Source: an uncultured Candidatus Binatia bacterium (lineage in GTDB: Bacteria; Desulfobacterota; Binatia; Bin18). Taken from it: 64,000 nucleotides of DNA. The stretch lies in NCBI GenBank assembly GCA_965214605.1, contig OZ243961.1, positions 576,001 through 640,000 on the forward strand, read 5' to 3'. The position numbers were made by a program, and so were the translations under genes. Positions 8,178-40,540 of this stretch are shown piece by piece. Each line of letters begins with the position of its first letter. Position 1 is the stretch's first letter. The notes under the pieces are model-generated. The model saw only the letters and a list, made by a program, of their open reading frames with translations. It made no database searches and was not told the DNA's origin.

Positions 8178-9242
8178 TCAGGTTTGCAGCGCAGGCATGA
8201 CCTGCTCGACAAACCGCCGCATGCTAGCCAAAACCTGGTTGTGGGGCACCAAGCCGCCTGGGTTAAACCAGCAGATGAGCTGATCCATCTTACACTGCCG
8301 GTGGACGGCGCGGATCTTTTCGACGCACTGCTCGGGCGGACCGTACAGCGCCATAGTATCGTCGATCAGCTCCCAGGTCACGGACTTCTGTCTCTGTCGG
8401 ACTTCCTGCAAATAGTCGTAGGATGCCGCCCGACTTTGACCCCGCTCCCCAAGCTCTGCCTGGGTCGTCACCGTCCGAAAATAGTGCATGATACTCGGCT
8501 CAACCTGTTGGCGTACCTGCAGCTGGCTATCGGCAACATACACGGGAAACAGTACTGCGCTGTCGGCCCGCTTATCCCGATGGCCGGCAGCCCGAAACGC
8601 CTGGTGGTAGCCGCCTAGATGCTGGGCGAGTTTGGGCATGGGATTAATCGGAGAGGCAACAAAGACGGGATAGCCGCGCTGGCCGGCAAAGGCGGCTGTT
8701 TCTGGGCTATTGGCCGCAATCCGCAGCGGCGGGTGCGGTTTTTGGAGCGGCTTGGGCACGACCGAGGTAGAGGGAATCTGGAAATAGCGGCCCTCAAATG
8801 CACAGGTGTCCTGGCTCCAGGCTTGCTCGATAATGGTCAGGGCTTCTTCAAAACGCTCTCGGCTCTCGTCCCTTGACACTCCCAGCCCCTGAAAATGAAT
8901 GGCGATTGTGCCGCGCCCCACCCCCAATTCAAGCCGTCCGTTGCTGAGGAGATCAACGGTCGCCGCGTCCTCGGCAGTCCGTAGCGGGTGCTGCAGTGAC
9001 AGCAGTGCCACGGCCAACCCCAAGCGAATGCGCCGCGTCCGCTCGGCCAGGGCCGCCGCAACGATTAATGGCGAGGGCATAATCGAAAACGGTCGGTTAA
9101 AGTGCAACTCAGCCAGCCAGGCCGTATCGAAACCTAGTTCATCCGCGTATTGGATCTGTTCGAGTGTCTCCTGGTATCGGCTGACCTCGTTTTGACCAGG
9201 AGCGCAGGGCAGCTGGTAAAAAAGACCGAATTTCATGGGCAA
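8178..9242 (-). CDS. LLM-class flavin-dependent oxidoreductase
   Basis: ADELGFDTAWLAELHF, HPLRTAEDAATVDLLSNGRLELGVGRG, PKPLQKPHPP. Confidence 0.92.
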   Translation of the reverse strand: MPMKFGLFYQLPCAPGQNEVSRYQETLEQIQYADELGFDTAWLAELHFNRPFSIMPSPLIVAAALAERTRRIRLGLAVALLSLQHPLRTAEDAATVDLLSNGRLELGVGRGTIAIHFQGLGVSRDESRERFEEALTIIEQAWSQDTCAFEGRYFQIPSTSVVPKPLQKPHPPLRIAANSPETAAFAGQRGYPVFVASPINPMPKLAQHLGGYHQAFRAAGHRDKRADSAVLFPVYVADSQLQVRQQVEPSIMHYFRTVTTQAELGERGQSRAASYDYLQEVRQRQKSVTWELIDDTMALYGPPEQCVEKIRAVHRQCKMDQLICWFNPGGLVPHNQVLASMRRFVEQVMPALQT

Positions 9243-29445: not shown

Positions 29446-30612
29446 TTACGGCTGCCCCAACACCGCGACACACGACACCGCACCCGGCCCGCCAACGTTG
29501 TGGACCAAACCCAGCCTGGAATTTTGGATCTGACGCGGGCCGGCTTGGCCACGCAGCTGAGTCACAATCTCATACACCATACGGACTCCGCTAGCCCCGA
29601 TGGGATGCCCAAAAGACTTGAGGCCACCGCTTGGATTAACCGGGATATCGCCGTCCAGAGCGGTCCGCCCTTCTTCAATCAGGGTAGCCCCCCGGCCTTT
29701 GGGGACAAAACCCAAGTCTTCATAATTGGTGATTTCGGTCCAGCTAAAACAGTCGTGGACCTCGGCCACGTCGATCTCCATGAGCGGGTCGGTAATGCCG
29801 GCCATGGCGTAGGCCTGGGCCGAGGCGTGCTCAGTAGCCTGAAAGCCGAGGTAGTCATAGCTCGGGTCCATAAAGGGCCGACCGCTGCTCACCGCTAGGC
29901 CCACCCCTTTTACCAAAATATAGTCATCGCGGTATTCTTTGGCCAGATCCGACCGACACACCACAACCGCGGCCGCCCCATCGGTCGTCGGACAGCAGTC
30001 ATACAGGCCGAACGGATAGGCCACGATGGGCGCGGTCAGGACTTCTTCGGCAGAGACGGTCTTTTGCAGATGAGCCTTGGGATTCAACGAGCCGTTGTAG
30101 TGATTTTTGACCGACACCTTGGCCAGGCTCTCACGGGTCAGTCCATAGGTGTGCATATAGCGGGTAGCAGCCAGGGCAAACAGACCCGGCGCGGTTGACC
30201 CGTCATTATAGTAGGGATGCACGCCCTCACGCGCCAAGCCACGCCCCGGACGGTCTTTGTACTTCTCCACCCCGAGCACCAAGGCCATATCGTACAGCCC
30301 GGCCGCCACGGCTATGACCGCGTGACGGAAGGCATCGGTTCCGGTCGCGCAAAAATTCTCGACCCGGGAGATTGGTTTATTGTACAGACGCAGCGCATCG
30401 CCCAAGGAGACCGCGGCCTTACCGTGTCCCTGGGCGGGTGAATAGGTGCCAAGCCAGGCCGCGTCAATCTCGTCAGGGGCAATCTTAGCGTCGTGAAAAG
30501 CGGCAAACGCCGCCTCAACCGCCATTTCTTCGTAACCCTGATCAACATTGTCCCCAAACTTAATGCAGCCTGCCCCAATGACAGCAACCTGATCTTTGAT
30601 GGAAGCGGACAT
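29446..30612 (-). CDS. thiolase (SCP2/lipid-transfer type acetyl-CoA acyltransferase)
   Basis: VENFCATG, KNHYNGSLNPKAH, DCCPTTDGAAA, EVHDCF, NPSGGLKSFGHPIGASG. Confidence 0.92.
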   Translation of the reverse strand: MSASIKDQVAVIGAGCIKFGDNVDQGYEEMAVEAAFAAFHDAKIAPDEIDAAWLGTYSPAQGHGKAAVSLGDALRLYNKPISRVENFCATGTDAFRHAVIAVAAGLYDMALVLGVEKYKDRPGRGLAREGVHPYYNDGSTAPGLFALAATRYMHTYGLTRESLAKVSVKNHYNGSLNPKAHLQKTVSAEEVLTAPIVAYPFGLYDCCPTTDGAAAVVVCRSDLAKEYRDDYILVKGVGLAVSSGRPFMDPSYDYLGFQATEHASAQAYAMAGITDPLMEIDVAEVHDCFSWTEITNYEDLGFVPKGRGATLIEEGRTALDGDIPVNPSGGLKSFGHPIGASGVRMVYEIVTQLRGQAGPRQIQNSRLGLVHNVGGPGAVSCVAVLGQP

Positions 30613-30649
30613 GACTTCTCCCTTCTGCAACAGCTGTCGTGTTCCCCCC

Positions 30650-30857
30650 TACTAGCAGCTTGGACAAGAGCCATGACCAACGTCGCAATCCCTGCCCCTT
30701 GCAGCCGCAAAGCCCGCTACCACTGCGCCTTTGTGGCCGGGTGGTCATCGTCTGTCTGAGACGCTTCTCCGATAGCTCTGGCTCTGGCTTCGGCCTGACA
30801 CTAGTCCATCCCGGTCTTTTACAACTCTTTGGCTCTAGTCCGTGTGTCAAAAGCCAT
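30650..30857 (-). pseudogene. DUF1640/CCDC90-like coiled-coil gene remnant
   Basis: Manual translation MAFDTRTRAKEL*KTGMD*CQAEARARAIGE...PATKAQW*...IATLVMALV; three in-frame stops, with an RBS upstream. Confidence 0.6.
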
Positions 30858-31248
30858 GACTTGGCTCTCCCCTTTCCTGCCCAATATACCCCCTATTAAG
30901 GAAGAAAACAGCGGGGAAAACTTTGCTATCTCACCTTAAACACCTATAGGGAGGTATTGTCTGATTGCCAGGCATGTCAAGCCGCGGCCTGCTTGCCTCG
31001 CCCCCAGCCTCTCCCGCGCCGGGAGGGGGGAAAGCCTCCGCCTACAGCAGGTGAAATTGGCACAGTACTCTGGCCACCTCCGGATCGCTACGCTGTTCTA
31101 ACGCCCAGAACACCTCTCTCAGCTCCTCCAACCGCAGGCGGTTGCCGCTGAGGTCATCTTCCAGGCTCCCCACCTGCCTGCGCAAAGGTCCAACTCATCG
31201 TTCGTCGGTTCCGCAGCACAAAGCCTCTGCTAAGCCGCCACGAGTGTG

Positions 31249-31480
31249 CTACAGGCACTCTAGTAGCCTCAGGGTCAACTGAAATTGGCGGGCAAACCGT
31301 GCGGCCATGTCCTCCCGCAGTTGGTGAGAACGCCTAGCCGTATCGGTCCAGAGTTGCTCATTCTGTTGGGCCCGCAGCTGGCCCATCTCCGCCGGCAACC
31401 GACCGATGTCTCCACGCAATTGCTGGGACCGCGTCCGCCAACCCCGCTTGTCGGGCTTCGAGTCGTATCAGACGCCTCGG
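31249..31480 (-). pseudogene. decayed coiled-coil (DUF1640/XhlA-like) gene remnant
   Basis: RLIRLEARQAGLADAV, frameshift, then QQLRGDIGRLPAEMGQLRA...QLREDMAARFARQF. Confidence 0.35.
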
Positions 31481-31864
31481 TCAAGGTCGGGGATAGCTCT
31501 CCGGGGCGGGCAAGAACACTATGACCAAAACCCCCGGGAGGAAGGATTAACTCATGGCGGCATTCAAGGTCGGATGCCGGAAATGTCAAGTCATGTGGAA
31601 AAGGGGATCAGCCTGACTCGACTGACGGGGCCGTTATGGCATCCACAGCTTCTCCTCAGCAGGGGTAAGCCAAGGCGGCATAATATCGAAAGGGGCGAGC
31701 CAGCAACCGCAGCGGCTCGGTCCCCCCTCCCCTCCTCTCTCCAAGGGGAGGAAAGTGCAGACGGAGACACGACTCGCCAGCGGCTCAATTCCTGGTCTTG
31801 CTTGTTTCAAATCCCATGTCTAGGCTGTGTTGGGAAAGCTCTTCAGCAGACGAATAGGAGAGAT

Positions 31865-34800
31865 ATGAGACGACAACATCACAGTGGTCAGAACGCTCGT
31901 GACTGGCGGCGCCAAATAGCAGCCTCTGCGGAGAAACAACAAGAAAGCGTCTTCACATATAAGTTTGGACTGAGCATACAAGAGGGAGATTTAGACTTTG
32001 CCGCGGCCACTCGAACCTACGACATCACCGAAGGGATTTTATGCGGGAGCTTAATCGGCTTGATATGCGCTGTGCATCTGTCCGGGTTTCGCCTATTTTC
32101 CAAGAGCGGGGAGACACGCCAGTTCCGAAATCGAAGTCGATATCCCGAAGACGCATTCACCAAGGCGTTCCGCGCTCATACGGAAATCATAAACCCTGAC
32201 ATTACGATTCAGTCAATTGAGGCTGTCTTCGCCGCACCTCCGCGAAAGAAAATAGCCTGGTCAGCGGACACCCTTGGGAAGCGGCTGTTTCAAACCTGGA
32301 ACAATCGCTCCCCAAAAGACGCAGAGAGAGAGCACCCAGAATTTTTACTGGCCCAGGGAATCGCTTGCGAAGTCGCCAAACAGTTCTCCGGATGGAAGGA
32401 ACTCGCCGACAATGTAAGCGGTGCACTGGCCTGCGCTGACAGATATCTGGCGACCCTGGGAGACTCCTTTCCAAAACTCAGTAACCTGCCACCCGGAACC
32501 ACGATCAATCCAGACTCTTGTACGCTTGCCTACGATCCCGAATCGCCCTTCGTTGAGATGGTTGGTAACGAAGAAAACTGGCTCCATCAGGTAGTGGCGG
32601 TTTGTGCTGGCAGGCTGAAACGAGACATGCCCGATCGTGACCTATCCTCGTCTGATTTTGCAAAGCGTCTGAACGACGCTGTTGTTACTAGTCAGCACAA
32701 TGGACTGTCTTGGTTATTCGGCAACGGCCTACGCTACCTTCGGAAATCAAGCATTGAGCGGATTACCGAAAACCTTGATGTTCCACACGGGAAGCGCCAA
32801 CGAGTTGAACAACTCAAAGCCTTTGCCGACGCGCTTCCTGACAATCCATTTTTCGACACCAATGGCTATGCCGAGTTTCGTACCTCCGTCGGTGGCAAGA
32901 TCGCCTCATGGGTCTCGAACTACTGGAAGCGCATTTGCGAACTTGCGACGTTGCATTCTCAGCCGCCGGATATCGCTATTCCCGAAACGCTGCAAGATCC
33001 CGATAACGCCTTTCTGTTTTCTGGTCAGCACACCAACGCTGCCGGCCTCATAGACCTCTCTAATCGCATCCCTGAGCGGGTCAAAAAAGCCGGCAATGCG
33101 CTTGTTGTTCTGCGTGGAAGTTGTATTCCTGGACCGGAAGATATCGCCGTCGTTGAATCCGTTGCCGATGAGATGACCGAACTCACTGGGCAACTCTCCA
33201 TGCTCGACAACCGCATTCGGCAGGAAACCGAACGCGCCAAAGACGCCGAAAACGAAAAACGTGCCAAGGTCCTAGAATCCCTCAGGCCAAACATTCCCAA
33301 AGGTCTCAAGGATCTGCCCAAACTAAACAGCATATCAGGCGGCACCGTGGACGCTACCGGTGAGATCAAACGGCTGGAAGCCGACCTGAACTCCGTCATA
33401 CGAGCACGCCGTGAGCACTTCCGGCAACTCTCTGAATGGGCGGACAGTAACGCAGGCGGCCTTGATCCCCTGCCCATCCTTAAAGAACGCGAACAAGAGG
33501 CGCTTTCCGACCGAAACATGGACCTCGATTGTGCAGCTGAATACGCTATCCGGCGTCTGCTTGATCGCATCGGCGTCATGTCGCATCGACTGTCGCCAAG
33601 TGTAGCCGAGCAAATCCGGACCGCCATGACGCCGCTTTTTCGCAGGAAAAAAGAGGCAAACCGCTACTTCTACAATCGCAACGGCAGGATCTATCGGCAT
33701 CCCTTCAGCACCTCACGTCACCAGGCTTATGCCATAGACGTAGAGCGTGCCCACGCAACCGATTGGCTCTTGTGGTTGGAGGAGCGGACGACAGAAATCC
33801 GTAACGCTCTGCGCGCGGATCAGACACGCCTACGCGATCTTCTGTTGATGGAAGCTTTTGTCCTGACGACACGGCTCGGCGGTCTCTCTGATCGTGTACC
33901 GGGGGATCTGGCGAAACCGGAAAACGACTGTCTCAACATTCCTCCCCTGCTCAAAGCGCAGCTCGAGGCTAGGGAGGTTTCGCGCGATGTGGCCGTGCGC
34001 GCCTTCAATCTGTTCAATAGTGCTATCAATGGTCTGTCGTTTCGCGCCTTCCGTGATAGTTTCATTGTTCGCGTTAAGTTTCAGCGCCAAGATCGCGAAG
34101 AAGTATTTTATGTCCCGAAGGAACGCCCCTGGCAGGCACCAGCTGACTATGATTCAGCCAAGGGTGAGATATCTAAGGGCTTGAAGCTCTCCGCAGTCGT
34201 GCGTGACCAAACCGGGGCTGTTCTGCCGCGTGAGACAGCCAAGGGCTTGAGTAAGGCGAAGTTTCCCGAGCCGGGTACGCGTGCCCTGCTGCGTCAATCG
34301 CCTCATGACTGGTTCGTCGAACTCGATGTCCGCTCTACCCAGGCTTCGGAGTTGGCAGGGCTGCCCGTCAAGAAGAACAAAGACGGACTCAAGCGCTGGA
34401 AAGTCCTGAAAAAGCCGGCCTTTCGACTAGTCGGGCCGCCCTCGTTCAAGACGCAGCTCGACCGCGCTCTGACAAGCGGAGAGGTGAAGCTCGGCGACTA
34501 CACGCTCATCATTGACCAGCTCTTCAAACAGTCCTTGTACGTCGAAGGTGAGGAGATACACCTTTTGGCTGAACCGGTAAAGATTCGGGCAGAACTGGCG
34601 GTTCCAGTAATAGACAACCGGCCGTATCCCAAGTCTGAAACCGACTTGATATTTAACAAGATCGTTGCCATAGACCTTGGCGAGCGACGGGTCGGCTACG
34701 CGGTCTTCTCGCTCATAGACTTCGTGGAAAACGGTTGCCAAAATCCGATCAAGGTGGGGAGCGTCGCCATTCCCGCTTTCAGGAAACTGATGGCCGCGGT

Positions 34801-35650
34801 CCGCCGCCACCGCGGGTCGCGGCAGCCCAACCAGAAGGTCGACCAAACCTACTCGAGAGCGCTGATGCAGTTCCGAGAAAACGTGGTGGGAGACGTCTGC
34901 TCTCGCATTGAGACCTTGTGCGAATACTTCGGCGGATTTCCCGTACTCGAAAGTTCGGTGGGAAATTTCGAGACAGGGGGCCGCCAGCTGGAGATGATCT
35001 ATGGTTCAGTCCTGCGCCGCTACACTTTCTCCGAAGTGAAAGCCCATAAAGCCACCCGTAGCCATCATTGGTTCACAGCGGACACCTGGAAGCATCCCTA
35101 CGTCTACACCTACACCTACACCTGGAATAAGAGAGAAAAGCAATATTCCGGCCCATCCAAGCCGCTGAAGATATTCCCCGGCGTCACGATCAACCCGGCC
35201 GGCACCAGCCAGACTTGCCAGCATTGTAAGCGGAATGCCCTTCAGGCGCTGCGTAACATGACGGACAAGGTCGAAGTGGGAGAAGACGGCCGCGTAGTCC
35301 TCGGAAACGGGACGATACGGCTTCTCGAACGAGCCGATTATCTTCCTTCCGAACGAAGAAAATTTCGTCACAACAAAGCAAGGCCGCCGCTAAACGTGCC
35401 TGCCCAGAAAGGATCCCGGCTAAGCCGCGACATCACGCGTATCGCCAGACGAAACATGCGGCAACCCCCATCTTCCACAATGTCACCCGATACCACACAG
35501 TCTCGCTTCAAATGCGTGTACGTTGACTGCGGCTATGAGGGGCATGCCGACGAAAATGCCGCAATTAACATCGGCCGGCGTTTTTTGGAACGGATCGATA
35601 TGGAAACGTCGAGAGGGACGTGCCGGGACTTGACCGGGCAGCGAGAATGA
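31865..35650 (+). CDS. cas12c: type V-C CRISPR effector Cas12c (C2c3), about 1261 aa
   Basis: RuvC-I IVAIDLGE, RuvC-II FPVLESSVGNFETG, RuvC-III GHADENAAINIG; Zn-ribbon CQHC...CVYVDC; N-terminal SGQNARDW and HLSGFRLF, plus GGKIASWVSNYW, as I recall from Cas12c2. Start set at ATG 31865 after AGGAG. Adjacent to cas1 and a short-spacer array. Confidence 0.9.
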   Translation: MRRQHHSGQNARDWRRQIAASAEKQQESVFTYKFGLSIQEGDLDFAAATRTYDITEGILCGSLIGLICAVHLSGFRLFSKSGETRQFRNRSRYPEDAFTKAFRAHTEIINPDITIQSIEAVFAAPPRKKIAWSADTLGKRLFQTWNNRSPKDAEREHPEFLLAQGIACEVAKQFSGWKELADNVSGALACADRYLATLGDSFPKLSNLPPGTTINPDSCTLAYDPESPFVEMVGNEENWLHQVVAVCAGRLKRDMPDRDLSSSDFAKRLNDAVVTSQHNGLSWLFGNGLRYLRKSSIERITENLDVPHGKRQRVEQLKAFADALPDNPFFDTNGYAEFRTSVGGKIASWVSNYWKRICELATLHSQPPDIAIPETLQDPDNAFLFSGQHTNAAGLIDLSNRIPERVKKAGNALVVLRGSCIPGPEDIAVVESVADEMTELTGQLSMLDNRIRQETERAKDAENEKRAKVLESLRPNIPKGLKDLPKLNSISGGTVDATGEIKRLEADLNSVIRARREHFRQLSEWADSNAGGLDPLPILKEREQEALSDRNMDLDCAAEYAIRRLLDRIGVMSHRLSPSVAEQIRTAMTPLFRRKKEANRYFYNRNGRIYRHPFSTSRHQAYAIDVERAHATDWLLWLEERTTEIRNALRADQTRLRDLLLMEAFVLTTRLGGLSDRVPGDLAKPENDCLNIPPLLKAQLEAREVSRDVAVRAFNLFNSAINGLSFRAFRDSFIVRVKFQRQDREEVFYVPKERPWQAPADYDSAKGEISKGLKLSAVVRDQTGAVLPRETAKGLSKAKFPEPGTRALLRQSPHDWFVELDVRSTQASELAGLPVKKNKDGLKRWKVLKKPAFRLVGPPSFKTQLDRALTSGEVKLGDYTLIIDQLFKQSLYVEGEEIHLLAEPVKIRAELAVPVIDNRPYPKSETDLIFNKIVAIDLGERRVGYAVFSLIDFVENGCQNPIKVGSVAIPAFRKLMAAVRRHRGSRQPNQKVDQTYSRALMQFRENVVGDVCSRIETLCEYFGGFPVLESSVGNFETGGRQLEMIYGSVLRRYTFSEVKAHKATRSHHWFTADTWKHPYVYTYTYTWNKREKQYSGPSKPLKIFPGVTINPAGTSQTCQHCKRNALQALRNMTDKVEVGEDGRVVLGNGTIRLLERADYLPSERRKFRHNKARPPLNVPAQKGSRLSRDITRIARRNMRQPPSSTMSPDTTQSRFKCVYVDCGYEGHADENAAINIGRRFLERIDMETSRGTCRDLTGQRE

Positions 35651-35669
35651 GCCACCATCGTTCCTATTC

Positions 35670-35745
35670 TCTTCCAGGCCCAAGGACTTATCATCCATAC
35701 CTCAACCTGGAAGACGTCCCCGCCTCCCCGGACGCCCTTCAAAGA
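35670..35745 (+). ncRNA. candidate Cas12c scoutRNA/tracrRNA
   Basis: TCTTCCAGG/CCTGGAAGA 9-bp stem enclosing a GGA..TCC hairpin and ATACCTCAA (CCTC pairs with the repeat 3' GAGG); CGTCC/GGACG hairpin; CCCTTCA pairs with repeat TGAAGGG. Confidence 0.7.
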
Positions 35746-35757
35746 GGGGAGGCATCA

Positions 35758-36813
35758 TCACCTTACCAGCTTTGAAGAGGAATGGGAGGTAAGGGGAATA
35801 TCGCCTGGCAGCCGATAGGAGACCTTTGGCGGACGCCCGCCTTTACGTTCACCCGCGGCGGGAACGATAAACCGGCGCATGTCGCCGGCCAGGTAAGCCC
35901 GCAGCGCCAACACGCTTCCATGCAACAGATTTTTACGGCGCACAAACTGGTGGGTAGCGGGAACGTAGACAACCTTCTCCATATCGTTCTTCAGCCCGGA
36001 CAAAGTGGCTTTGGTCAGCGAGTCAGAGGCATTGTCCGGGGGATGGGTCCGGCAGGCCCCGGCAACGGCCTCTTCAATCATGTACCGGGCTGGCTCCATG
36101 AGATCGTAGACAAGTCCCATGTAGTCGGTCCCTTCATGCAGGAATCCGTGACTGGGCGAAAGCCGGTGGATTAACAACCAGCGCAAGAGTACCCCAGACA
36201 GGAACATGGACCCTGCATCAAGGGCGGCTGGTAAAGGCCCCTCCCCTCTGCGAGTGATATCAGGGTATCCCATCCGAGTGAAATATCTCCGCCAATATCT
36301 GCGTGATTGCTCGGCTTCCCAGGCCCGTATCTGTCCAAGATTCCGTGTACGCGCCAGCCGTTTGTAGACAGCGCTTGGCATGGGCAGTGTGTTCTCTACC
36401 GCCCGAAAACGTTCACGTACTAGAGTCCGCGCAATATAGGCACGTTTAGATTTATTTGTCCGGGTAACGATCTGTCTGGTCAAAATATCGTCGGCATCGA
36501 CTCTGGGAGCTGGCAAGAAAATCGCTGGGCGGCTGATGTTGCGGCGGTGAACAAGGAGGGGCACTCGGCGAAAGGCAAGTTCGTCAATGAGAGCGACCGG
36601 AATCTGGCCAGTCGCGCCGTAGAACATGATGCAATCAAGCTGCGACAGCTCAGTATCGACCTCGCCTCCGTTATATGTGAACCGCCATAAGTTCTTTTTG
36701 AGCCTTGCTACCTGAGAGACGTATGGTAGCCACAAGGTCGTCTTGCTTCTCCGCTTGGTTGATTTCCATGTCCAAAGAGAATTTGGATGTTGAAATTGAT
36801 CAATTTTAACCAT
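35758..36813 (-). CDS. cas1: type V-C Cas1 (Cas2-independent mini-integrase type)
   Basis: LWTWK..LWLPY N-terminus, AWEAEQSRRYWRRYF, LSPSHGFLH, LVYDLMEP; no cas2 or cas4 nearby. Confidence 0.9.
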   Translation of the reverse strand: MVKIDQFQHPNSLWTWKSTKRRSKTTLWLPYVSQVARLKKNLWRFTYNGGEVDTELSQLDCIMFYGATGQIPVALIDELAFRRVPLLVHRRNISRPAIFLPAPRVDADDILTRQIVTRTNKSKRAYIARTLVRERFRAVENTLPMPSAVYKRLARTRNLGQIRAWEAEQSRRYWRRYFTRMGYPDITRRGEGPLPAALDAGSMFLSGVLLRWLLIHRLSPSHGFLHEGTDYMGLVYDLMEPARYMIEEAVAGACRTHPPDNASDSLTKATLSGLKNDMEKVVYVPATHQFVRRKNLLHGSVLALRAYLAGDMRRFIVPAAGERKGGRPPKVSYRLPGDIPLTSHSSSKLVR

Positions 36814-36874
36814 ATATGTCCTCAGTAAGAAAATCGAAAAATCATTGTAATATAAATATTTATCTGGTATACCT
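36814..36874 (+). promoter_or_regulatory. AT-rich CRISPR leader / divergent cas1 promoter region
   Basis: 61-bp AT-rich spacer with TTGTAA-17nt-TATACC and palindromes ATAAATATTTAT and GGTATACC. Confidence 0.65.
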
Positions 36875-37539
36875 CCAGTTCTGAAGGGGAATTAGAGGCC
36901 GAAAAATATGAGTTCTGAAGGGGAATTAGAGGGTGTGGAGCATGACGCAATCCAGTTCTGAAGGGGAATTAGAGGCTGAAATACGGGCGTTCCTCCAGTT
37001 CTGAAGGGGAATTAGAGGTTCTCAACAGCATGAGGAGTCCAGTTCTGAAGGGGAATTAGAGGTTCTCAACAGCATGAGGAGTCCAGTTCTGAAGGGGAAT
37101 TAGAGGTTCTCAACAGCATGAGGAGTCCAGTTCTGAAGGGGAATTAGAGGTTCTCAACAGCATGAGGAGTCCAGTTCTGAAGGGGAATTAGAGGTTCTCA
37201 ACAGCATGAGGAGTCCAGTTCTGAAGGGGAATTAGAGGTTCTCAACAGCATGAGGAGTCCAGTTCTGAAGGGGAATTAGAGGTTCTCAACAGCATGAGGA
37301 GTCCAGTTCTGAAGGGGAATTAGAGGTTCTCAACAGCATGAGGAGTCCAGTTCTGAAGGGGAATTAGAGGTTCTCAACAGCATGAGGAGTCCAGCAGGGG
37401 AATTAGAGGTTCTCAACAGCATGAGGAGTCCAGTTCTGAAGGGGAATTAGAGGCACGCGCATGACGCACCCCCCAGTTCTGAAGGGGAATTAGAGGATGG
37501 AAGGCTTCGGGCTGCCCAGTTCTGAAGGGGAATTAGAGG
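36874..37539 (+). CRISPR. CRISPR array, 16 repeats (T)CCAGTTCTGAAGGGGAATTAGAGG, 15 spacers (6 distinct)
   Basis: Period 43-44 nt; spacers 18-19 nt with a 25-nt repeat. Spacers 4-13 are identical. Spacer 1 is 12 nt before a 5'-truncated repeat 2. Repeat 13 (37391-37409) has a net 5-nt deletion. The 3' GAGG end and left leader indicate + orientation. Confidence 0.97.
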
Positions 37540-37560
37540 CAGGGAGGGAGGGCTGGAATC

Positions 37561-38286
37561 TCATCGCTGTCCAAGTCGAATCGCCTCGGCCAGGTCTACC
37601 GCGCCGGTGTAGAGGGCGCGGCCGATAATCAGGCCGTGTATACCGTCCGCTTTACATGGCCGCAGCCGCTCAATGTCTTCAAGACTGGCCACGCCACCAG
37701 AGGCAATAACAGGAATCTGAATTGCCCGAGCCAAGAGCCGGGTGGCTTCGATATTCACCCCTAGGGATGTACCGTCACGGATAATATCGGTGTAGACAAT
37801 CTCACCAACGCCCATATCTTGGCACTGTTCGGCAAGTTGCGTCGCCTCAAGCTCAGTCGCTTCAGTCCAGCCTTGGACAGCGACTTTCCCGTCCCGGGCA
37901 TCAATGCCAACCGTAATCCGGCCCAAAAAGCGTCTACATGCCTCAGCTACAATCTGAGGCTGCCGATAGGCTACTGTGCCCAGAATTGCACGCTGTACCC
38001 CGAGTGAGAACATCTGCTCAATCGCCGCTAGGCTGCGCAGTCCACCGCCGAGCTGAACCGGAATATGTAAGGATTGGCAGATTTTTTCTATAGCGTCAGT
38101 GTTCACGCCTGCGCCTGACATGGCGCCGTCAAGATCAACTAGGTGGAGCCGAGCGGCTCCGGCGTCTTGCCAGCGCTGTGCCACGGCGACCGGATCGTCG
38201 GAGTAGATGGTCGCCTGAGCCATATCACCTTGGTAGAGACGCACACACTGACCGGCCTTGAGGTCGATGGCGGGGATAATCTCCAT
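37561..38286 (-). CDS. hisA: ProFAR isomerase
   Basis: IIPAIDLKAGQCVRLYQG, HLVDLDGA, QLGGGLRS, YTDIIRDG, IASGGV. Confidence 0.95.
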   Translation of the reverse strand: MEIIPAIDLKAGQCVRLYQGDMAQATIYSDDPVAVAQRWQDAGAARLHLVDLDGAMSGAGVNTDAIEKICQSLHIPVQLGGGLRSLAAIEQMFSLGVQRAILGTVAYRQPQIVAEACRRFLGRITVGIDARDGKVAVQGWTEATELEATQLAEQCQDMGVGEIVYTDIIRDGTSLGVNIEATRLLARAIQIPVIASGGVASLEDIERLRPCKADGIHGLIIGRALYTGAVDLAEAIRLGQR

Positions 38287-38291
38287 AGGAA

Positions 38292-38951
38292 TCACAGAGG
38301 AGGGTGGTGGTCGGTCACAAATTTGCCGAAGTTGGCCAAGATTTGTAGGCCGACGGCCTGGCTTTTTTCTGGGTGAAATTGGGTAGCGAAGATATTGCCT
38401 GACCAAACACTCGACGCAAAATGGATGCCGTACTCGGTGGTGGTGGCCACGATGGCCGGGTCTGTTGGGATCGGATAATAGGAGTGAACAAAATACACCG
38501 CCGCGCCCTCGGGTATCTTGGCCAAATGGGGGGCTGGTCGCTCAATGTGGAGCTGGTTCCAGCCCATATGGGGGATTTTTTGTGGACCGTTGTCGGTTGT
38601 CAGCAGAGCAGGATCAAAGCGCTCGACCGTGCCTTTAAGGATGTCCAAACCTTGCTCCCGGCCAAACTCGTAACTTTCTGAAAACAGGATCTGCATACCG
38701 ACACAAATCCCAAGCAGCGGCGTGCCGCTGTTGGCCACCCGATGGACGGTTTCGATAAGCCTACATTTAGCCAGCCCGTCCATACACGCGCTAAACGCGC
38801 CCACGCCCGGCAGTACTACTCCCGCGGCAGCCTCAATGCGGGCAGCGTCCCTGGTGATTTCAGCCGGGTAGCCCATCTTCTCGCAGGCTTTTTGGACACT
38901 CCGCAGATTGCCCATACCATAGTCAATAATCGCAATTGTGCCGAGAGGCAT
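38292..38951 (-). CDS. hisH: imidazole glycerol phosphate synthase glutamine amidotransferase subunit
   Basis: IIDYGMGNLRSV, LPGVGAF, GICVGMQ, PHMGWN, YFVHSY, QFHPEKS. Start set at MPLG. Confidence 0.95.
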   Translation of the reverse strand: MPLGTIAIIDYGMGNLRSVQKACEKMGYPAEITRDAARIEAAAGVVLPGVGAFSACMDGLAKCRLIETVHRVANSGTPLLGICVGMQILFSESYEFGREQGLDILKGTVERFDPALLTTDNGPQKIPHMGWNQLHIERPAPHLAKIPEGAAVYFVHSYYPIPTDPAIVATTTEYGIHFASSVWSGNIFATQFHPEKSQAVGLQILANFGKFVTDHHPPL

Positions 38952-38977
38952 TCTCTCTCCTCCGCTCCCTCCCTCTC

Positions 38978-39001
38978 CCTCTAATTCCCCTTCGGAGCTG
39001 G
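38978..39001 (-). repeat. isolated inverted copy of the CRISPR repeat (22/24)
   Basis: Minus strand reads CCAGCTCCGAAGGGGAATTAGAGG, 26 nt upstream of the hisH ATG. Confidence 0.9.
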
Positions 39002-39031
39002 CCAGAGATATAGGTATAGGGCATAGGACAT

Positions 39032-39064
39032 CGGCTATTTCACAATCACACTGCAAAATAGCCG
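39032..39064. terminator. hairpin CGGCTATTT...AAATAGCCG (likely terminator)
   Basis: 9-bp inverted repeat between the GST stop and the orphan CRISPR repeat. Confidence 0.55.
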
Positions 39065-39085
39065 TGTATTAAAGTGGCGTGTTGT

Positions 39086-39808
39086 CTATTCCGGAACCGG
39101 CCGCGCCCGCTGGTTGTAGAGCATCTTGCGCAGGCGGTCTTTCTCTTCCTGCGACAGCTTGGAGAAGTCCATGGACAGCTCGCTGCCAACGGCCATGCCT
39201 TTTTTCACCCCGTCCCGTTCCGAGAGTTCCTCAAACCAGCGTTTGAAATATTTAAACTCGTTGATGTCCTGTCCCTGGGCCTCCCAGCTGACCGTCCAGG
39301 GATAACAAATCATATCGGCGATCGTATACTCATCACCGGCCAGATAAGGCTGCCGATAGAGCTGATTATTTAAGACGCCAAACAGACGGTTGACCTCATC
39401 TGTGAAACGCCGCACTGCATATGTCTGATCACCCTGTTCATCGCCCAAGCGCCGAAAATGACCACACTCTCCGCTTTTGGGGCCTTGGTTGGCCATCTGC
39501 CACATGACCCACTGGTTGACGACGTAACGCCCCCGCACGTCTTGGGGATAGAACTTGCCGGCCTTCTCGGCAATATACATCATCATTGCTCCAGATTCAA
39601 AAATACTGATCGGCTCGCCCCCGCCCAAGGGATCGTGGTCGACCATGGCGGGCATCCGGTTGTTAGGACAGATCTGTAGAAATTCGTCCGTGAACTGATC
39701 TCCACGGCCAATGTTGCAGGGGATCATATTGTAGGCTATGTCACACTCTTCGAGCAGAATAGTCACCTTTTTGCCGTTTGGCGTGGGCCAATAGTGTAAG
39801 TCAATCAT
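39086..39808 (-). CDS. glutathione S-transferase, YfcG/YghU-like
   Basis: WPTPNGKKV, PNNRMPA, IFESGA, YTIADM. Confidence 0.92.
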   Translation of the reverse strand: MIDLHYWPTPNGKKVTILLEECDIAYNMIPCNIGRGDQFTDEFLQICPNNRMPAMVDHDPLGGGEPISIFESGAMMMYIAEKAGKFYPQDVRGRYVVNQWVMWQMANQGPKSGECGHFRRLGDEQGDQTYAVRRFTDEVNRLFGVLNNQLYRQPYLAGDEYTIADMICYPWTVSWEAQGQDINEFKYFKRWFEELSERDGVKKGMAVGSELSMDFSKLSQEEKDRLRKMLYNQRARPVPE

Positions 39809-39937
39809 GCTGCGTACCTCCTTTTTTCCGATATCGACCGACCGGACGTTATGCCACCCTACACCGATTCGACTGACTGGAACAAGCAGGTCTGGATGCG
39901 CAAGCGCCGGGATCTTGCCTGTCGCCGAGCGAACGGC

Positions 39938-40540
39938 TTACGCATCTGTCCACTCGGTATTCCAGCGTGGAAAAAAACGCGGCACCCGCCGGCAGTATGC
40001 AGCATAGGCCTGGCCAAAACGCTGGTGTAATTCCCGCTCTTCAAACACGACAATCACATACAACAGGGGCAGACTCAGTGCCGCCCATACGTATAAGATC
40101 AGATAATTGGCCACAAAGGCGAAGCCTAGCACTGATAGAAACACTTCTAGATAGCGCGGGTGTCGTATCCGGGCATAAATCCCCTCCTGTAACAAGCTGG
40201 ACGGTTGGCTCTGAGAGCGCAGTTCGGGGAGACCGATCATGATACGCAGGGTCAAATATTTGCGGTGCTGGAGTGCAAGCGCGCCTGCTCCGCTCAGACA
40301 CACTACGGCCAGTCCCAGACAGACGGCGTTTGTCTCGTACTTGGTGGCCAACAGCGCACCGCGAACTACAAACAGGCCTCCGCCAAGCATGCTCAGCTCG
40401 GCTCCCACCAGACCATACGTCCAGCCCACCCCCCGTTTACGCCAAAATTCGGCAAAAGGGTGGATGCACAGCCAGAACAACAGCCCCGGCGGGAGGCCGA
40501 TCAGAAACGCGAACGCAATCCCGTAGCGCAACTCATCCAT
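39938..40540 (-). CDS. isoprenylcysteine carboxylmethyltransferase/PEMT family membrane protein
   Basis: GIYARIRHPRY, EERELHQRFGQAYAAYCRRVPRF. Start set at MDELRY. Confidence 0.85.
   Translation of the reverse strand: MDELRYGIAFAFLIGLPPGLLFWLCIHPFAEFWRKRGVGWTYGLVGAELSMLGGGLFVVRGALLATKYETNAVCLGLAVVCLSGAGALALQHRKYLTLRIMIGLPELRSQSQPSSLLQEGIYARIRHPRYLEVFLSVLGFAFVANYLILYVWAALSLPLLYVIVVFEERELHQRFGQAYAAYCRRVPRFFPRWNTEWTDA

Follow-up and report, generated by a model that had tools for sequence, protein, structure and literature searches.

Ten tandem copies of one spacer in a type V-C CRISPR array of an uncultured Binatia bacterium: probable expansion by slippage or unequal recombination

The 64,000-nucleotide stretch of DNA analysed here (hereafter the window), from an uncultured Candidatus Binatia bacterium, contains a type V-C CRISPR locus composed of Cas12c, a lone Cas1 and a 16-repeat array in which one spacer is present in ten tandem copies. 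A genuine tandem expansion of one 44-nt repeat-spacer unit by slippage or unequal recombination within the array is the explanation that we favor, at a probability of roughly 0.7. Slippage had been named in an earlier sequence-only reading of this DNA as an alternative to a dosage effect, and it is now the best supported account, given the single-unit and block duplications in related arrays, one of them with a variant repeat, and one array found in three states. This type of event is known, and the window array is an extreme instance of ordinary array instability; type V-C, however, is a system in which unit amplification has not previously been described, and a literature search joining "Cas12c" and "duplicated spacers" found none.

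The array contains 15 intact copies of the repeat CCAGTTCTGAAGGGGAATTAGAGG and one shortened copy (Table 1). Repeats were delimited by the 25-nt convention adopted from related arrays, under which the amplified spacer is 19 nt and five others are 18 nt long; the resulting lengths (24-25 nt for repeats, 18-19 nt for spacers) are the short repeats and short spacers of type V-C. The 20-mer TTCTCAACAGCATGAGGAGT was found ten times with 0 mismatches, starting at 37019, 37063, 37107, 37151, 37195, 37239, 37283, 37327, 37371 and 37410; with up to 3 mismatches allowed, the rest of the 4.37-Mb genome contains no further match. The ten exact copies thus located bear out the earlier statement that this spacer fills positions 4-13, or 10 of the 15 spacers (two thirds of the array). 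Tandem Repeats Finder reported a period of 44, 12.5 copies and a score of 893. The copies are in direct tandem and identical over the entire unit, including the ends of both repeat and spacer, as in slippage-type duplication, and ten exact copies of a 20-mer cannot have arisen by chance.

The last spacing in the run is 39 instead of 44 because the repeat at 37391-37409 is short; the damage described there earlier was found again, CCAGCAGGGGAATTAGAGG replacing the 24-nt repeat with 3 mismatches to the 22-nt core in a gapless alignment. A second lesion, absent from the earlier list, is a 9-nt shortfall across spacer 1 and the beginning of repeat 2. Such small lesions in V-C arrays are not unique to the window, since the 55-repeat V-C array of the related genome G006 (L027) has one repeat three letters short (about 8285-8300) and a 32-nt "spacer" containing an inverted repeat piece (about 8876-8908). 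The 10-nt string GCATGACGCA is common to spacers 2 (36933-36950) and 14 (37454-37471); by a rough estimate, the chance that ten letters are common to two of six 18-nt spacers is on the order of 1e-3, and on this likeness the two may come from related protospacers. The motif AGCATGA is common to the amplified spacer and spacer 2.

Table 1. Coordinates of the features of the type V-C locus in the window (window numbering), and of the other CRISPR arrays of the source genome G000 (contig numbering).
Feature	Position	Strand	Remarks
cas12c	31406..35650	+	ORF of 1414 aa; NCBIfam NF033950 Cas12c equivalog
Lone cas1	35758..36813	-	Pfam PF01867 Cas1 at 7.9e-14
A+T-rich leader	36814..36873	+	Between cas1 start and first repeat; from sequence
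Whole CRISPR array	36874..37539	+	16 repeats (25 nt with variable first base), 15 spacers
Spacer 1 and repeat 2	36899..36932	+	9 nt short (36899-36912); spacing 34 vs 43
Amplified block with flanking repeats	36994..37453	+	44-nt period
Ten copies of spacer TTCTCAACAGCATGAGGAG(T)	37019..37429	+	Exact-match search
Shortened repeat between copies 9 and 10	37390..37409	+	Five letters fewer, one changed
Two oldest spacers (14, 15) and repeat between them	37454..37515	+	From sequence
Orphan inverted repeat copy	38976..38999	-	Beyond hisA-hisH; 2 changes, both T to C
Other G000 array	C1:2301764-2307642		97 repeats
Other G000 array	C1:3922755-3928349		76 repeats
Other G000 array	C1:1687759-1689704		25 repeats
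Other G000 array	C1:528871-529952		17 repeats
Other G000 array	contig C2		About 17 repeats

The cas12c ORF scored 1074 bits against NF033950 (cutoff 250), which identifies a type V-C effector, and matched Cas12c2 in the PDB (7v93) at 513 bits (1.4e-152) and Cas12c1 (7vyx) at 414 bits. Its RuvC columns D1090, E1182 and D1382 are invariant among 19 aligned sequences. Homologues of about 1260-1280 aa align to the ORF only from about residue 154; as the ORF reaches about 150 codons (31406-31870) upstream of this alignment, the true start of cas12c is probably downstream. The Cas1 is also matched by TIGR00287, with a score below the equivalog cutoff. Neither cas2 nor cas4 was found around the locus, where six small ORFs had no Pfam hit, so that Cas1 stands alone there, and a search of positions 30000-40000 against Rfam gave no match; a type V-C locus would be expected to encode a tracrRNA/scoutRNA. 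Metabolic genes flank the locus, with thiolase upstream and hisA-hisH downstream. In the published portions available to us, type V-C systems with a Cas1-only integrase have repeats of about 25 nt and spacers of about 18 nt (PMC8464041, PMC6977970), and the systems of Cas12c2 and OspCas12c, with their Cas1-only mini-integrase, share with the window the Cas12c equivalog, the lone Cas1 and the repeat and spacer lengths (PMC8464041). With all of these as published, the locus is an ordinary type V-C system; it differs in that amplified guides go unmentioned in the available parts of those accounts, whereas the window array has one.

The source genome comprises 4.37 Mb, of which one contig makes up 4.31 Mb, and the relatives found with the Cas12c profile are records titled as uncultured Binatia MAGs. 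Five genome contigs (L031, L032, L033, L035 and L037) encode a Cas12c 62-68% identical to that of the window together with a near-identical 25-nt repeat, and the titles of these MAGs name Nitrospirales, Alphaproteobacteria and Bryobacterales. Their resemblance suggests that one V-C lineage has spread horizontally across phyla.

The amplification was followed in four public sequencing runs from two studies (X1-X3 from one, X5 from the other), which were available as assembled contigs and not as reads. All four contain a 74-nt cycle contig, whose length equals the 44-nt period plus k-1, the signature of a tandem repeat in a 31-mer graph; it begins with the final six letters of a spacer copy and continues with a repeat, a complete second copy and the next repeat. 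The depth of this cycle relative to its flanks was 8.0 (7.6-8.6) in X1 (685 against 80-90), 7.4 (5.6-9.4) in X2 (66 against 7-12), 3.9 (3.5-4.2) in X3 (242 against 57-69) and 2.9 (2.3-4.2) in X5 (12 against 3-5); these contig depths are not equal to copy numbers, other strains may contribute to them, and X2 (about 8x) and X5 (about 4x) are shallow. The ratio predicted from the assembly, that is, the mean 31-mer multiplicity in the perfectly periodic part, is 9.07, so that the assembled count and the estimate for X1, the closest run, differ by no more than about one unit. Because the tandem-cycle contig and raised depth ratios occur in all four runs, the amplification exists in the raw data, and its copy number likely varies between samples, from about 8-10 in the assembled genome to apparently about 3-4 elsewhere.

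The same contigs show that the array is polymorphic, for they differ from the window at spacer 1 and contain an additional spacer before spacer 14. After position 36910, X1 (in a contig of depth 90) and X5 (in one of depth 5.2) have 9 letters that the window lacks; with them the spacer is 18 nt long and the repeat complete, which contradicts the window consensus at spacer 1. The 9-nt gap is a consensus error or else an allele of the strain. The first letter of spacer 1 also differs in X5. In X2 and X3, a 51-kb contig has an extra spacer where the amplified block adjoins spacer 14 in the window (junction 37454), and this extra spacer opens with the same five letters as spacer 14. Among the contigs listed for the four runs, none covers the shortened repeat at 37391-37409, which 31 unique 31-mers would mark, and none of those listed for X2 and X3 covers spacers 1-3; such holes prove nothing in either case. 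The exact unit count of the assembly and the small lesions are provisional, unlike the amplification itself.

Duplicated units were surveyed in 75 loci near Cas12c relatives, namely the window, G006, loci from genome_contigs (24 at E-values of 0 to 4e-28, together with weaker matches) and 44 from metagenome_contigs. Only arrays whose period was 40-46 nt were kept; L074, L086 and L089 were dropped as duplicates of another locus, and L028 and L029 were excluded as the same places as L034 and L030. Exact duplicate units occur in 10 of the 40 V-C arrays, in tandem in seven and in at least three copies in three, and 34 of 526 units are redundant; L087 and L088 are possibly variants of one array, which would make these counts one lower. 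With the window excluded, the corresponding values are 9/39, 6/39, 2/39 and 26/511. In L042, tandem single-unit runs contain one spacer five times and another three times. Multi-unit blocks, not seen duplicated in the window, are duplicated in its relatives: the G006 array begins A-B-A-B, and in L053, an isolate, a block of three spacers is present four times and carries its own variant repeat. A further spacer has three states: L089 has one copy of it, L088 has two, and in L087 the duplication takes in the adjoining spacer as well. Fresh acquisition cannot yield blocks that include a marked repeat; such blocks show copying by misalignment.

The non-V-C arrays of the same lineage provide a comparison. 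G000 is a CRISPR-rich organism with at least five further arrays of other types (Table 1), and in the four of them on contig C1, 2 of 211 spacers are redundant and dispersed; in G007 2 of 224 are redundant, as two adjacent pairs. Together this makes four redundant spacers of about 434, never in more than two copies, and runs of at least three copies were found only in V-C arrays within this sample. In the available text of the SpacerPlacer survey (PMC11472070), duplication candidates make up about 3% of spacers and are mostly simple duplications attributed to replication misalignment; 171 of 333 array groups had no duplication event, and the events are termed rare. The V-C redundancy of about 5% is a modest excess over that value, with copies counted and few independent events behind it. 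As far as that text goes, the event type and the presumed mechanism are the same as in the window, with identical tandem units inside the array and away from the leader, and multi-unit blocks are duplicated too, as in the relatives of the window array; the window array differs in its ten copies, in their two-thirds share of all spacers and in the apparent variation between samples, and on long runs the available text of the survey is silent (PMC11472070).

An expansion by slippage would have begun with a single 19-nt spacer acquired once. Neighbouring 25-nt repeats would then have misaligned, by replication slippage or unequal sister-strand exchange, and the unit would have been duplicated. 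Two adjacent identical 44-nt units would form a minisatellite-like stretch that expands and contracts easily, with an outcome such as the about 8-10 copies in the assembled genome and the apparent about 3-4 in other samples. No selection would be required, and as a consequence up to two thirds of the guide-encoding units would specify one guide. Directly observed are the copies, their occurrence in independent sequencing data and the repeated finding of duplicated units and blocks in V-C arrays; we infer slippage as the mechanism, the succession of steps and the copy numbers behind the depth ratios. Slippage between direct repeats rises steeply as the distance between them shrinks, and V-C arrays are plausibly prone to it because their repeats are only 18 nt apart; adjacent identical 44-nt units more than double the homologous stretch and should make further change easier. 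The ten copies, all of the same slightly atypical 19/20-nt length and with the same boundaries, support this account. Hairpin-driven slippage is not indicated, since the amplified unit, as a single strand, folds no better than shuffled sequences do (z = 0.31) and two control units behave alike.

Bacterial minisatellites, or variable-number tandem repeats, consist of anonymous or coding repeat DNA. The window array shares with them a perfect 44-nt period and an apparent difference in copy number between samples; unlike them, its unit is a functional guide-RNA cassette in an immune locus.

No target marks the amplified guide. A search of the amplified spacer against the host genome, plasmids and viral contigs, which the sequence-only reading had proposed as a check, returned no target outside the array. 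Its exact 19-mer had 0 hits in viral_contigs, and a search of 200 more genomes from the class found no match at up to 1 mismatch. Among phages and plasmids, blastn with the leader, repeats and spacers 1-4 as query found nothing better than chance (E of 7-8), and spacer 14 had 0 hits in the target search. Spacer 2 has one exact 18-mer match in a 37-kb viral contig (L111), which was treated as chance: the two letters on its 5' side are C and G and not a T-containing Cas12c PAM, the 19th letter differs, and the amplified spacer is absent from that contig at up to 3 mismatches.

Transcription of the array would start in the A+T-rich leader, next to cas1. A second, incomplete copy of the locus edge (described below) conserves this leader, and the degenerate repeat of the relatives lies at the end opposite cas1. 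Cas12 crRNAs generally consist of a repeat followed by a spacer, and this layout, too, favors leader-side transcription. A scan of the array region for sigma-70 promoters and terminators with a simple consensus found nothing beyond chance. If all units are processed, ten of the 15 crRNAs would carry one guide, whose share would rise about fourfold, from 1/6 to 2/3. In the published parts available to us, trimming of the Cas12c2 crRNA involves recognition of the first six letters of the downstream repeat, and the handle is formed by roughly the final 18 letters of the repeat upstream (PMC9522604). A preprint places the cut 17 nt after the upstream repeat whatever follows (bioRxiv 10.1101/2021.12.06.471469). 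By analogy with Cas12c2, processing of copy 9 should be possible, since its downstream repeat retains five of the six letters, and the handle of copy 10 would keep the spacer-proximal part and lose the part that pairs in the outer stem.

Selection for guide dosage is an unlikely reading, though one with several observations in its favor. It holds that the Cas12c of the window acts by binding only, so that occupancy decides the outcome and more copies of a guide are favored, slippage supplying the variants and selection keeping their number high. According to the available text of the respective sources, neither Cas12c2 nor OspCas12c cleaves DNA in vitro, in contrast to Cas12c1 (PMC9522604), and Cas12c can protect by binding alone (bioRxiv 10.1101/2021.12.06.471469). 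The effector of the window is closer to Cas12c2 than to Cas12c1 (513 vs 414 bits), and it is a reasonable but unproven extrapolation from these scores that it is likewise DNase-free. The restriction of runs of at least three copies to V-C arrays in this sample, and the tandem state in all four runs from two studies, agree with such selection, and the persistence of the amplified state in four non-identical arrays could also reflect it. Against this, no target was found, so that nothing marks the guide as special; its share rises only about fourfold (1/6 to 10/15), at the expense of the other guides; apparent copy numbers range from about 3 to about 9; and the amplified units of other V-C arrays occupy no consistent position. 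The broader proposal that guide amplification is a general dosage device of binding-only CRISPR systems, in which polymorphic copy number is upheld by selection because occupancy and not cleavage decides, we regard as a long shot; if true, the amplified guides of V-C arrays (10x in the window, with 5x and 3x runs and a 4x block in other arrays) would be an equivalent of gene amplification within CRISPR systems.

Repeated acquisition, by which the lone Cas1 would have inserted the same abundant prespacer ten times at the leader end, followed by three newer spacers, is quite improbable. Successive insertions would leave contiguous copies, as observed, and the dispersed X-Y-X duplicates in G007, L032 and L041 could be re-acquisitions; for the single-unit run itself, slippage and repeated acquisition cannot be distinguished from the sequence alone. 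Yet the ten copies have the same ends and the same length, one of the less common among V-C spacers, which range from 17 to 19 nt, and the block duplications with marked repeats show that a copying mechanism operates in V-C arrays. Reacquisitions, moreover, account for only about 1% of the duplication candidates in the large survey, in so far as its available part (Table 2) reports (PMC11472070). Least probable of all is an assembly artefact, the other alternative raised at the outset, in which a true array of one or two copies was inflated by the assembler or polisher: the 9-nt gap relative to the read-derived contigs at spacer 1 shows that the consensus is not flawless, and polishing is difficult where tandem repeats vary in length, but the cycle contig in four of four runs, its depth in the closest run, which is 7.6-8.6 times that of the flanks where 9.07 is predicted (in keeping with about 8-9 copies), and the position within a 4.31-Mb contig, which suggests that the region was spanned and not guessed, lead us to reject it as the source of the amplification.

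Traces of other rearrangements surround the array. The orphan inverted repeat copy is followed by a GGGAGGGAG-type flank (to about 38955), like the flank of the array's last repeat, and hisA-hisH, which lies between these two repeat copies, is inverted relative to the array in comparison with G006 and G007 (hisA 3' end). From the order of these elements, the arrangement fits a putative 1.5-kb inversion between repeat copies. A second partial locus edge (G000 C1:176170-176512; 89.5% identity, no cas12c nearby) combines about 210 nt from the 5' end of cas1 with the leader, one spacer and two repeats; a third fragment (G000 C1:4252045-4252087) comprises 43 nt of leader end plus repeat. With the orphan inverted repeat and the partial leader-plus-repeat copies at two places, the repeats of the window array have undergone other recombination as well, which adds to the case for the favored explanation.

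If the expansion arose by neutral slippage, the very short period of 43-44 nt makes V-C arrays minisatellite-like, which matters for array-based strain typing, for CRISPR finders that penalize identical spacers and for the use of V-C arrays as records of infection. If the copy number is instead selected, the window array would represent the first natural tuning of guide dosage in a CRISPR system that only binds DNA, and would offer a simple design rule for repression tools based on Cas12c.
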